From NCBI RefSeq assembly GCF_045037415.1, contig NZ_CP173438.1: a DNA stretch of 64,000 bases. One strand, given 5' to 3'. Each line of letters begins with the position of its first letter. Within the stretch, counting starts at the first letter, position 1. The stretch comes from Escherichia coli. Lineage in GTDB: Bacteria; Pseudomonadota; Gammaproteobacteria; Enterobacterales; Enterobacteriaceae. The position numbers were made by a program. Positions 30,901 through 36,900 of this stretch are shown here, one piece after another.

Positions 30901-33900
30901 TGTGTGGGTCTGTGGGGCTACCTGCTGTATCAGGGCGTGGTCGATCCGCTGGGCGGCGTTAAGAGCCTGTGGCCGCTGTTCGGTATTTCCAACCAGATGC
31001 TGGCAGCCGTAGCGCTGGTACTGGGCACCGTTGTGCTGATTAAGATGAAGCGCACCCAATACATCTGGGTAACTGTTGTTCCGGCTGTATGGCTGCTTAT
31101 CTGCACCACCTGGGCGCTGGGCCTGAAACTGTTCAGCACCAACCCGCAGATGGAAGGCTTCTTCTACATGGCAAGCCAGTACAAAGAGAAGATTGCTAAC
31201 GGTACTGACCTGACGGCGCAGCAGATTGCCAACATGAACCACATCGTTGTGAACAACTACACCAACGCGGGCCTGAGTATTCTGTTCCTGATTGTGGTGT
31301 ACAGCATCATCTTCTACGGTTTCAAAACGTGGCTTGCGGTGCGTAACAGCGACAAACGTACTGACAAAGAAACACCGTACGTTCCAATCCCGGAAGGCGG
31401 CGTGAAGATCTCTTCGCACCACTAACCGTGTTTAGCCCCGCTTCGGCGGGGCTTTGTTCTTATCAGAGTGAACTATGTTTGGTAACTTAGGACAGGCAAA
31501 AAAATATCTCGGCCAGGCGGCGAAGATGTTGATTGGCATTCCAGACTACGACAACTACGTCGAGCATATGAAGACCAACCATCCCGACAAGCCGTACATG
31601 AGCTATGAAGAATTCTTCCGCGAACGCCAGAATGCGCGCTACGGCGGCGATGGTAAAGGCGGTATGCGCTGTTGTTAATGGAGAGAGCATGAACCCGATT
31701 GCAGTTACCCTACTCACCGGTTTTTTAGGCGCAGGCAAAACCACCCTGCTGCGCCATATTCTTAACGAACAACACGGCTACAAGATTGCCGTGATTGAAA
31801 ACGAATTCGGCGAAGTCTCCGTTGATGATCAACTGATTGGCGACCGCGCCACGCAGATCAAAACGCTGACCAACGGCTGCATCTGCTGTTCGCGCTCCAA
31901 CGAGCTGGAAGACGCACTACTCGACCTGCTGGATAATCTCGACAAGGGCAATATTCAGTTCGACCGTCTGGTCATTGAATGCACCGGCATGGCCGATCCC
32001 GGCCCGATTATTCAGACCTTTTTCTCCCATGAGATTTTATGCCAGCGTTACCTGCTGGACGGCGTGATTGCGCTGGTGGATGCGGTACATGCCGATGAGC
32101 AGATGAACCAGTTCACCATCGCCCAGTCACAAGTGGGCTACGCCGACCGTATTCTGCTGACTAAAACCGACGTCGCAGGCGAAGCAGAAAAACTGCGTGA
32201 ACGCCTGGCGCGCATCAACGCCCGTGCACCGGTCTACACCGTCACCCACGGCGACATCGACCTGGGCCTGCTGTTCAACACCAACGGTTTTATGCTGGAA
32301 GAGAACGTCATCAGCACCAAACCGCGTTTCCACTTTATCGCGGATAAACAAAACGATATTTCGTCGATTGTGGTGGAACTGGATTACCCGGTAGATATCA
32401 GCGAAGTTTCCCGGGTGATGGAAAACCTGCTGCTGGAATCGGCGGATAAACTGCTGCGTTACAAAGGGATGCTGTGGATTGACGGCGAACCTAACCGCCT
32501 GCTGTTCCAGGGCGTCCAGCGCCTCTACAGCGCCGACTGGGACCGCCCGTGGGGCGATGAAAAACCGCATAGCACGATGGTGTTTATCGGGATTCAGTTG
32601 CCGGAGGAAGAGATTCGGGCGGCGTTTGCGGGGTTGAGGAAGTAATTATGGATGATGGCCGCCATGTGGCGGCCTGAATTATTTTTTGTTCTGATCGCGC
32701 AGCATCGCTTCACGTAAAATTGCGTTCAGGCGAGTTTGATAGCCTTTACCAGGTCGCTTCAGCCATTCCATCACATCAGCATCAATACGCACCGAAGCCT
32801 GGGTTTTCAATGGCCGATAAAACTTACCGCGTTCTGCGTTAGACCATTGCTCATCGCTGGAAGGCGGGATATCACTGTAATCAATATCTTCGTCGAATTT
32901 ATTCGCCAGTGCCTTCAGTTCGGCCTCATGCTGCACATCGAGTGTAGAGGGTGTCCCTCGTTTATGTTTAACCATGCTCATAGCGGCTCCTCTCTTTACG
33001 ATCTGCTTTTCGTGCACTGATGATTCGAATAATTTCATTTCCGCTTTCGAAACGGATGGTATGCGCAACCAGAATAACCACGATACCGTGAACCAGGCCG
33101 ATAGTCTGCCAGCGATACTCACCGTTTTCTATGCGATCTTGCTGTGACAAATGTTGTGGATCATCAAACACTAACACCGCATCTTCAAAGCGGATGCCAT
33201 GTTTCACCCGATTACTTTTGGCCTTGTTTGCATCCCATTCAAACTCCATTGGCATAGTTGCCATCCCTAATTGTATATACAAAAATGTATCTACAATTAT
33301 TCTGCAATTATAGCGTTGATGTTGGAAATAGCATCACGTTTTGGATAATCAACCATGAAATTGACAATGAGTAAGTTGGACTTGATTCATCCAATAGAAT
33401 TTCTCGCCTGACATGGCACACTAAACACCTCGCTGTCGTTAAGGGATTACCGTGAAAAACTATAAAGTTATTACCCCGCTTTTTCCTACCTATGCACAGG
33501 TTAAAGCTATGATGAAAGCCGTCTCAGGCTATTCCCTGAAAGCGGTACGCAATATGATTACCGCCATTCGCGATCAAACCGGTACGCCGCAAAAACCCGT
33601 TGACTGGTCGGAACCTGACCTGTGGATCAGCGAACGCTTAACGGGCGAAGATGCCGACATCGCCCGTCGTATTTGGGATACAGATAATCACATATTGAAC
33701 CCGCGCCACAGCTACGGCTGCTACTTATTCCTCAACTATCCCCAGTTTGAGCTGATGGAAAGCACGCCAGATGATACCTGGCAGCCCACCTCGCGCGGGC
33801 AAAAATTCCTGCAAGATGACGAAAAAACGCTGCGTTCACTGGATGACCAGGAAGGCATTCTGCAACTGCTTGAGCTGCTGGCTGGCCGAGAAATGTCGCG

Positions 33901-36900
33901 CCGCGCCGATTTATTGCCGGAATGGCAGGCCTTTTTGCATCAGCATTCGAAATTCGCGTCTGCAAGTTCAGTGAAAAGCACGCTCTACTCCCGTCTCTAT
34001 AACCTTATTGACCGTGGCATGGTTACTCGCGAAGGTATGAGCTATTGCATCACCGATACCGGACGCGCCTGGCTTGGAAAAGCGTTGCCAGCACGAAAAA
34101 GCGATCCGCGTAAAGAGCTGCTGGAAGCGGTGAAACGCTACAACGAGCAGCAAAAAGAGCTGCTGCGCGAACAAATCAGCACAATGAACCCGTACAAATT
34201 TGAACAACTGGTCGGTCAATTACTGGAAGCAATGGGCTACGAGCAGGTCGAAGTGACCAAAGCCTCAGGCGATAAAGGTGTGGACGTGATTGGTCAGGTG
34301 CAGGTCGGCATCACCACTATTACCGAAGTGGTGCAGGTCAAAAGAATGCAGAACACCATCACTCGACCGTATATCGACCAGTTGCGCGGAGCGTTGCCTT
34401 ACCACAAGGCCATTCGCGGTACGCTCATCACCACCGGGAAATTTGCAGCGAAATGTGCAGAAGCGGCGCTCTTTCCGGGGGCCGCGCCCATTACGCTTAT
34501 CGACGGCGATCGCTTACTGGAACTGTTAATCGAAAATAACGTCGGCATTCGCCGCAGCAATGCAGTGGAATTGCTGGATGTGGATTTGCAGTTGTTTGAT
34601 GAGCTGGAGATGGATTAAAGGGCGAAATCCGCCGCCTCAACCATTACAATAGCGACCCAATTTATCTGAACAGAGTTCATCATGGCCAAAGCACCAACTA
34701 AAAAAGCCAAAGCAAAAAAAGGCTTTGAAGAAACATTATGGGATACCGCAAACCAACTTCGCGGTAGCGTTGAGTCCTCCGAATACAAGCACGTGGTGTT
34801 AAGCCTCGTGTTCCTGAAATTCATCAGCGATAAGTTTGAAGCACGCCGCAAAAAAATGATTGCCGATGGGCAAGCTGACTTCCTTGAGATGGAAGTGTTC
34901 TACCAGCAGGACAACATTTTCTACCTGCCGGAAGAGGCGCGCTGGTCGTTTATCAAACAAAATGCCAAACAGGACGATATTGCGGTTCGTATTGACACCG
35001 CCCTCTCGACAATTGAGAAACGTAACCCAACCCTGAAAGGCGCGCTGCCAGACAACTACTTCAGCCGTCAGAATCTGGAAACCAAAAAACTGGCGTCACT
35101 GATTGATACCATCGACAACATCGAAACGCTGGCACACGAAACTGACGTTGAAACGTTGTCGAAAGAAGACCTGGTCGGACGCGTTTACGAATACTTCCTC
35201 GGTAAGTTTGCCGCAACCGAAGGCAAAGGCGGTGGAGAGTTCTACACGCCCAAATGTGTGGTCACGCTGTTAACTGAAATGCTCGAACCCTTCCAGGGCA
35301 AAATTTATGACCCGTGCTGCGGCTCGGCAGGGATGTTCGTGCAGTCGGTGAAGTTCGTCGAGAGCCATCAGGGTAAAAGCCGTGATATCGCGCTGTATGG
35401 TCAGGAACTGACAGCCACGACGTATAAACTGGCAAAAATGAACCTCGCCATTCGCGGTCTTTCAGCTAACCTCGGCGAACGCCCGGCAAACACTTTCTTT
35501 AGCGACCAGCACCCGGACCTGAAAGCCGACTACATTCTGGCGAACCCGCCGTTCAACCTGAAAGACTGGCGCAATGAAGCCGAATTAACCGAAGATCCAC
35601 GCTTTGCCGGTTATCGTATGCCGCCAACCGGTAACGCCAACTACGGCTGGATTTTGCATATGCTCTCCAAGCTGTCGGCTAACGGCACAGCAGGTTTTGT
35701 GCTGGCAAACGGTTCGATGAGTTCTAACACCAGCGGTGAAGGCGAGATCCGTGCACAGATGATCGAAAATGATCTGATTGACTGCATGATCGCCCTACCT
35801 GGACAGTTGTTCTACACCACGCAGATCCCGGTGTGTTTATGGTTTATGACCAAATCGAAGGCTGCCGACCCGGCCAAAGGTTATCGTGATCGTCAGGGCG
35901 AGACGCTGTTTATTGATGCGCGTAACCTCGGCACCATGATTAGCCGCACAACTAAAGAGTTAACGGCGGAAGATATTGCCACAATCGCCGATACCTACCA
36001 TGCCTGGCGCAGCACGCCGGAAGAACTGGCTGCACGGATTGCGCGTGGTGACAGCAAGCTGGAAAAATATGAAGACCAGGCAGGCTTCTGCAAAGTTGCG
36101 ACCCTGCAAGATATTAAAGATAACGACTACGTTCTGACACCGGGCCGCTATGTGGGTGCAGCCGAGCAGGAAGAAGACGGCGTGGCATTTGAGACCAAAA
36201 TGCGTGAATTGTCGAAGACGTTGTTTGAGCAGATGAAGCAGGCGGAAGAACTGGATCGTGCGATTCGCCAGAATCTGGAGGCGCTGGGTTATGGGGAGTA
36301 AGTGGTGTATATATCGCTTAGGTGATATAGCTGAATTTTCATACGGAAAAATGCCTAAAAAGGAGTTTGTTGGTACAGGTGACTATGTCATTTTTTCAGG
36401 ATATAAATACACAGAAAGCTACCCTGAAAAAAATACTTCGGCAGGTGAGTTAATTGTTGTTGCCCGAGGTGTTGGTGGAACTGGCGATGTTAAAATAACG
36501 ACTAGAGATTGTTATTTAACAAATTTGTCCATTAAAATAAATTTGGATGAAACAAAAGTAAGAAAAGAATATTTTTATTATCTGTTTCTACAGAGTAATT
36601 TACGATATCTTGATAGCGGTTCTGCTCAAAGCCAAATAACCATCAATGATCTAGCGAATGTAGAAATATCTGCTCCTTCGCTAAATGTTCAAGATTTAAT
36701 AGTCAAGAGTCTCAAAGCTTTTGATGACAAAATCACAACACTTTCATCCATGAACCAAACCTTGGAACAAATGTCCCAAACCCTGTTCAAATCCTGGTTT
36801 GTGGATTTTGATCCAGTGATTGATAACGCTCTGGATGCAGGAAATCCAATCCCGGAAGCCCTGCAAACTCGCGCCAAATTGCGTCAAAAAGTACGTAATA

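Follow-up and report, generated by a model that had tools for sequence, protein, structure and literature searches.

We examined a 64,000-nucleotide stretch of Escherichia coli DNA (contig NZ_CP173438.1 of RefSeq assembly GCF_045037415.1; hereafter the window), and in it a gene at 33452..34618 on the plus strand that encodes an Mrr-family nuclease of 388 residues with a dual winged-helix N-terminal module, of the type catalogued by PADLOC as PDC-S02. The locus is the chromosomal immigration control region (ICR) of E. coli, where the nuclease gene has brnTA on one side and a type IB hsdMSR operon on the other. The genes are ordered btsT-yjiX-yjiA, brnA/brnT on the opposite strand, the nuclease gene, hsdM, hsdS and hsdR on the same strand as the nuclease gene, and symE; in K-12 the corresponding slot beside yjiA is occupied by mrr. 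The open reading frame is intact, with exactly 388 codons from a GTG start, and matches a RefSeq protein of Nissle 1917 annotated as 'restriction endonuclease' (WP_000800831.1; identical protein, identical coordinates), which confirms the 388-residue product proposed here by an initial annotation of the window. The stretch 33300-34700 is 100% identical in Nissle 1917 and in many further strains. The results below suggest, with reasonable though far from full assurance, that this protein acts as a Type IV-like restriction nuclease whose double winged-helix reader is new, and that it takes the place of EcoKMrr, the Mrr of K-12, without being its orthologue.

The C-terminal half carries the Mrr_cat PD-(D/E)xK nuclease that the initial annotation had recognised. 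The PD-QxK domain (residues 243-359; 34178..34528, plus strand) matches PF04471 end to end (model positions 2-115 of 115) with a Pfam E value of 3.8e-29. When aligned to K-12 Mrr, E251 (codon 34202-34204), D278 (34283-34285) and Q295-V-K297 (Q295 at 34334-34336, K297 at 34340-34342) fall on E172, D203 and Q219-A-K221, so that none of the catalytic D/E-x-K residues has been lost, and the same stretch also aligns with the nuclease domain of MspJI. Residues E251, D278, Q295 and K297 show no variation across 43 full-length homologues (51-94% identity), and on all this evidence the nuclease is expected to be active. A secondary, weaker Pfam match to NA-iREase1, a family of 'inactive' restriction endonucleases, is an overlap of related families; an inactive nuclease was rejected, since the active-site residues are invariant and the Mrr_cat score is far above that of NA-iREase1. 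An active nuclease of the Mrr superfamily can be assigned with much more confidence than its dependence on DNA modification.

The N-terminal half departs from K-12 Mrr. BLASTP aligned residues 216-383 only (31% identity over 173 residues, E=1e-19) and nothing within the N-terminal 215 residues; there is no high full-length identity, and similarity is confined to the nuclease half. Pfam found no Mrr_N (PF14338) in the window protein or in any of 31 family N-termini. Comparison of the N-terminal family profile with residues 1-154 of K-12 Mrr by hhalign gave a probability of 2%; against the Mrr_N family alignment the value was 56%, but over 30 columns only, which make up the wing of the winged helix ('G-W-x-T-x-x-G'). 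The PADLOC model mREase_IV scores 95 bits on the window protein, in its C-terminal half, as against 580 bits on K-12 Mrr. Orthology to EcoKMrr was thus rejected by BLASTP, Pfam, PADLOC and hhalign. The initial annotation had described an extended, divergent N-terminal region that loosely resembles the winged-helix region of K-12 Mrr and shares a PTY motif with it. Its observation that the N-terminus is unlike that of K-12 Mrr holds; the region is, however, a distinct module and not a stretched Mrr winged helix. One relative (P0153) has a genuine Mrr_N in front of the module, and the PTY motif, while present in both sequences, carries no statistical weight.

The two proteins do have much in common in outline: both have a Mrr_cat PD-QxK domain in which the E, D and QxK residues correspond, both run from an N-terminus of winged-helix type through a linker to the nuclease, and the genes of both lie at the yjiA edge of the ICR beside a type I system. 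They differ in that the N-terminus of EcoKMrr is a single winged helix of ~90 residues and that of the window protein spans ~215 residues in two lobes, in total length (304 against 388 residues), in the lack of Mrr_N in the window protein, and in PADLOC family (mREase_IV against PDC-S02). Within PDC-S02, model PDLC04796 covers the window protein almost completely (685 bits, E=7.7e-207, residues 1-386 on profile positions 1-383 of 390), and the other three PDC-S02 models match its nuclease half only. A methylome study of ST131 labelled the EC958 gene beside M.EcoMII 'Mrr' and ascribed K-12 properties to it (PMC4659465). If this label were right, the protein would simply be the Mrr of the strains that carry it, with the specificity and behaviour of EcoKMrr (dependent on N6-methyladenine or 5-methylcytosine, and pressure-inducible); the shared slot beside yjiA and a type I system, and the shared family of the catalytic domain, agree with such an identity. 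We consider it very improbable, given the limited BLASTP alignment, the missing Mrr_N, the negative or marginal hhalign results and the separation by PADLOC. In MspJI, McrB and DpnI, target choice lies in the N-terminal domain, and this is the part that differs here. Functional identity with EcoKMrr is thus largely refuted at the sequence level, and judging from its architecture the window protein probably recognises foreign DNA of a different kind than K-12 Mrr does. The initial annotation had tentatively proposed such a difference in target; the proposal gains indirect support in that the N-terminal 215 residues are a separate, strongly conserved module, which also fills the reader position of McrB-, GmrSD-, HNH- and Mrr-type enzymes.

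Residues 1-215 form a compact, highly conserved pair of lobes without a described family. An AlphaFold2 run on these residues with 31 homologues gave a confident model (predicted local distance difference test score, pLDDT, 92.3; predicted template-modelling score 0.88) with two winged-helix-like lobes. Lobe 1 (residues ~9-120; 33476..33811, plus strand; pLDDT >90) consists of five helices and a beta-hairpin wing, and the strongest conservation of the N-terminal half falls there: P9, Y14, Q42-x-G-T-P46, V50-D-W52, P55, W58, W75 and N83-P-R85 are invariant, and W52, P55, W58, W75 and N83-P84 are invariant also in relatives with other effectors. Lobe 2 (residues ~124-211; 33821..34084, plus strand) is a classical, PadR/MarR-like winged helix, in which R181 and R188, in and beside the predicted recognition helix, are invariant. 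A long linker helix in the AlphaFold2 secondary structure (residues 219-244; 34106..34183, plus strand) leads from this module to the nuclease. No Pfam family covers lobe 1 or the N-terminal module, a Foldseek search of the N-terminal model against the PDB returned nothing at E<=1e-3, and an N-terminal profile search found no solved relative by sequence.

The top Foldseek match of the full model was FokI (E=1.1e-5), but at a template-modelling (TM) score of 0.25, and the match was absent when the N-terminus was searched alone; on these grounds a FokI-like reading seems unlikely. The recognition domains of BpuJI and N.BspD6I also matched weakly, BpuJI with TM 0.37 and E of about 0.04 for the N-terminal model alone. 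Such matches, together with the secondary NA-iREase1 hit, are those expected if the protein were a sequence-specific, FokI-like (Type IIS-like) nuclease, a nuclease without specificity, or a regulator that binds DNA and keeps its nuclease domain only as a vestige. We hold this set of explanations to be quite improbable. Family loci away from type I genes are stand-alone (for example Kapabacteria L007) and lack an adjacent methyltransferase, a lack that would be lethal with a sequence-specific cutter; a dedicated methyltransferase is missing from many loci. The reader module, moreover, keeps 45-50% identity across phyla, unlike the fast-diverging specificity domains of Type II enzymes, its model alone has no significant PDB match, and a vestigial nuclease is at odds with the invariant active-site residues.

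The module is also found with partners other than the Mrr_cat nuclease. A profile of residues 1-215 was searched against 1.84 billion representative proteins and gave 460 matches, most of which are ~385-405 residues long with the same architecture as the window protein. Pfam was run on 23 longer members, and PADLOC was also run on the long members. Beside the module, nine of the 23 carry Mrr_cat (e.g. P0187, P0153 and P0163), eight carry a McrB-type AAA_5 domain (e.g. P0134), and one each carries GmrSD_N/DUF262 (P0143), HNH_2 (P0135) and a KAP NTPase (KAP_NTPase; P0233). Three (P0163, P0185 and P0227) have an extra HARE-HTH domain; in P0153, the single case among the 23, the extra Mrr_N yields the order Mrr_N, module, Mrr_cat; and in one protein (P0121) a tandem copy of the whole 210-residue module before Mrr_cat was recognised by eye. 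For P0134, which combines the module with AAA_5 and McrB_lid, the gene directly after it encodes McrC (locus L093). In Type IV restriction enzymes, such as those of McrB, MspJI and GmrSD architecture, target-recognition domains combine with varied effectors. It is mainly because this combinatorial pattern is the signature of Type IV target-recognition domains that we read the module as a putative reader of DNA marks, with the same measured confidence as the Type IV-like assignment to which it belongs.

Some further observations concern the long members and the records in which the module occurs. An additional domain that looks EVE/PUA-like by eye, unconfirmed by Pfam, is C-terminal in P0187 and P0125 and N-terminal in P0200. 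At locus L092 an N6_N4_Mtase plus HNH gene (434-1813) adjoins the module-McrB-like gene P0150 on the opposite strand, and McrC is not visible on that short contig. Phage records are essentially devoid of the module, and among plasmids it is rare, occurring in one Vibrio plasmid type only; an 834-kb E. coli 'plasmid' record and a Salmonella 'phage' record that contain it look chromosomal. An origin from mobile elements was rejected on account of this distribution.

The genomic neighbourhood of the family was compared over 80 loci from GTDB species representatives, with full-length relatives at 39-98% identity, spanning Proteobacteria, Firmicutes, Bacteroidetes, Chloroflexi, Gemmatimonadetes, Planctomycetes and others. 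Of the 80 loci, 31 have type I genes no more than 3 kb away; where at least 3 kb of sequence is available on both sides, the figure is 24 of 52 loci (~46%). As a type I system takes up much less than 1% of a genome, type I genes accompany the family far more often than chance would give, by this rough genome share rather than a formal background. The type I neighbours are co-directional in 28 of the 31 cases, at gaps usually below 100 bp and often below 30 bp or overlapping. In nine loci (L027, L036, L038, L043, L045-L048 and L052) the family gene sits between hsdR and hsdM; elsewhere it is upstream of hsdM, as in the window, or follows hsdS or hsdR. All-against-all clustering of the neighbours in the 80 loci returned hsdM/S and hsdR as the only recurrent partners, and a second conserved partner gene was rejected, the remaining clusters being antisense shadow open reading frames and local enterobacterial synteny.

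Such an arrangement would also be expected of a back-up effector or guard coupled to the type I system, like PrrC with EcoprrI, which is the main rival to the Type IV-like reading. Under this model the neighbouring type I complex would restrain the nuclease or be sensed by it, and a phage anti-restriction protein that disables the type I system would release the nuclease. The exclusive recurrence of hsd neighbours, their direction and close or overlapping spacing, and the repeated insertion between hsdR and hsdM all agree with it, as does the window itself, where a scan found no terminator-like site between the nuclease gene and hsdM, so that the two genes may be co-transcribed. We nevertheless judge a guard function unlikely. 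In more than half of the loci with full flanks, type I genes are missing from the vicinity, so that linkage to hsd genes is not obligate, and the type I systems that do accompany the gene come from different families and differ in gene order. The module is also fused to McrB, GmrSD and HNH effectors, and the four short contigs (4-6 kb) with these fusions show no type I genes. Finally, in strain ECOD1 the type I system is destroyed, with the N-terminus of hsdM directly abutting a C-terminal remnant of hsdR, yet the nuclease gene beside it is intact and there is no apparent lethality; the nuclease gene is therefore viable without its neighbour.

The likeness to PrrC and the Rlo genes is accordingly one of genomic setting, an accessory defence gene repeatedly inserted in or beside hsdR/M/S operons. 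PrrC, an ABC-ATPase anticodon nuclease, has domains unrelated to those of the window protein; signs that the type I complex masks the nuclease were not found, and roughly half of the family members stand alone. A broader reading would take the 210-residue module as an undescribed family of DNA-mark sensors serving Mrr-, McrB-, GmrSD-, HNH- and KAP-type effectors, and would in addition take its insertion into type I loci as functional coupling, for example the sensing of DNA or complexes that escaped or disabled the type I system, as opposed to defence-island clustering. This conjunction seems to us rather doubtful.

Two well-known modification-dependent systems help to place the protein. MspJI and AspBHI also join an N-terminal reader of modified DNA, putative in the window protein, to a C-terminal Mrr-like D...QxK nuclease, and among solved structures theirs (4f0p and 4oc8) match the nuclease domain of the window protein best. 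Sequence similarity is marginal (E=0.019) and limited to the nuclease. These enzymes read DNA through an SRA-like beta-barrel that flips 5-methylcytosine, whereas the reader of the window protein is an all-helical winged helix; the SRA-like, 5-methylcytosine-binding N-terminal domain that characterises the MspJI family is absent from the window protein. The resemblance to McrBC lies in the placement of the ~210-residue module at the N-terminal reader position of McrB in several AAA_5/McrB_lid proteins; the window protein differs as a single-chain nuclease with neither a GTPase motor nor a McrC partner.

We therefore return to the Type IV-like nuclease and to how it might work. The single chain appears to be built as reader, linker helix and cutter. 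That it would cut only modified DNA has indirect evidence in its favour, namely the stand-alone loci that lack a methyltransferase and the sharing of the module with McrB, GmrSD and HNH_2 architectures. The strong conservation of the module between phyla suggests that its target is probably a mark on DNA, chemical or structural, and not a sequence particular to one strain; the mark would have to differ from Dam, Dcm and resident type I methylation, because the host tolerates the gene. The winged helices may bind marked foreign DNA, and oligomerised Mrr_cat domains may then cut nearby; cutting of this kind has been demonstrated for MspJI and suggested for EcoKMrr. In E. coli the nuclease gene would have replaced mrr in its slot, travelling with the type IB hsdMSR cassette. 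The two systems could thus form complementary layers of defence, type I acting against unmodified DNA and the nuclease against DNA whose modification lets it escape type I.

Several points weigh against this proposal. The dependence on modification, drawn from architecture and analogy, is itself uncertain. Neither structure nor sequence links lobe 1 to a known reader of modified bases, and the N-terminal lobes are near neutral (isoelectric point about 6.7-6.9), not strongly basic. Where the gene is tightly embedded in type I operons, it might be functionally coupled to them and not just located beside them. A cold-seep representative of PDC-S02, its subfamily unstated, was not among the protective candidates against T4, T5 and T7 in E. 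coli B (bioRxiv 10.1101/2024.09.26.614923).

The family is already catalogued, by RefSeq and as a PADLOC candidate, yet it is uncharacterised, and its N-terminal module is without a Pfam family or solved structure. PDC-S02, to which the window protein belongs, is known as a computational 'phage defence candidate' without a described mechanism; our literature search found it only in defence-system censuses and found no characterisation of the family. A 2025 EcoSal review describes mrr-type genes and brnAT as companions of type I families in the ICR and does not dissect this protein (PMC12707154).

Of 5426 complete E. coli genomes, 880 contain the nuclease coding sequence, always on the chromosome and in single copy, at 95.6-100% identity; the carriers include EC958 (ST131), Nissle 1917 and ATCC 25922. 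K-12-type mrr is present in 952 of these genomes and type IB hsdM in 951, and the nuclease gene and K-12-type mrr occur in two different sets of genomes that are about equally large. Roughly one complete E. coli genome in six thus carries a gene that, despite its 'Mrr' label, shares only the cutting domain with K-12 Mrr. If the nuclease does depend on modification, with a specificity of its own, it would be an unrecognised barrier to DNA transfer, phage therapy and the engineering of carrier strains, and its reader module would be a new domain among DNA-modification sensors. Readers of this kind, such as that of MspJI, are useful as epigenetic tools. Because the gene so often sits within type I operons, it also lends itself to asking whether restriction against modified and against unmodified DNA is functionally coupled or only co-located.

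In addition to ECOD1, a second strain has lost its type I system: in B-1109 a deletion truncates the nuclease gene, which has an internal stop, and an hsdR remnant is directly adjacent. These are two independent E. coli deletion scars (L089 10212-11047 and L090 9001-11597).

Three loci of the wider family have unusual gene content. On the Vibrio parahaemolyticus conjugative plasmid pHLE-202008 (L091, 2902-10158), genes for a large DNA methyltransferase, a helicase-related protein and a GIY-YIG nuclease are followed by the family member, all co-directional and next to a Hok/Gef gene. In Kushneria indalinina (L003) a TIR_2 plus Y4lF gene (5520-6482) lies between hsdS and hsdM of a type I operon that ends with the Mrr-like gene, which places two accessory defence-type genes in one operon. 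In Thiocystis minor (L005, 9232-17203) hsdM is split into two open reading frames downstream of hsdR and the Mrr-like gene, and is followed by an MNT/HepT toxin-antitoxin pair and then by a SNF2-family helicase gene; hsdS was not detected in searches of this locus.

Upstream of the nuclease gene in the window lie brnT (32968-33255, minus strand), divergent from it, and its toxin-antitoxin partner brnA (32679-32981, minus strand); the pair are neighbours of the nuclease gene, and a functional link is not implied. The pair is retained in Escherichia albertii and Citrobacter relatives (L009, L018 and L020) and also in the E. coli strains with a deleted type I system (L089 and L090). A ribosome-binding site read from the sequence (AAGGGA, 33441..33446, plus strand) precedes the GTG start by 5 nt. 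The 169-bp divergent intergenic region common to the nuclease gene and brnT contains a promoter-like site (TTGGAA-16-GATAAT; 33322..33349, plus strand), which is weak evidence, the count from the consensus scan being no better than in shuffled sequences.

Downstream on the plus strand follow the type IB genes hsdM (34682..36301, 63 bp after the nuclease gene), hsdS (36291..37595) and hsdR (37690..40953); hsd genes of the CFT073/A0 34/86 type at this locus have been assigned to type IB (PMC2481252). The specificity gene hsdS is low in GC, with a GC content of 0.33-0.38 at 36500-37500 compared with ~0.52 in hsdM and hsdR, a drop that fits the exchangeable target-recognition domains of a specificity subunit.

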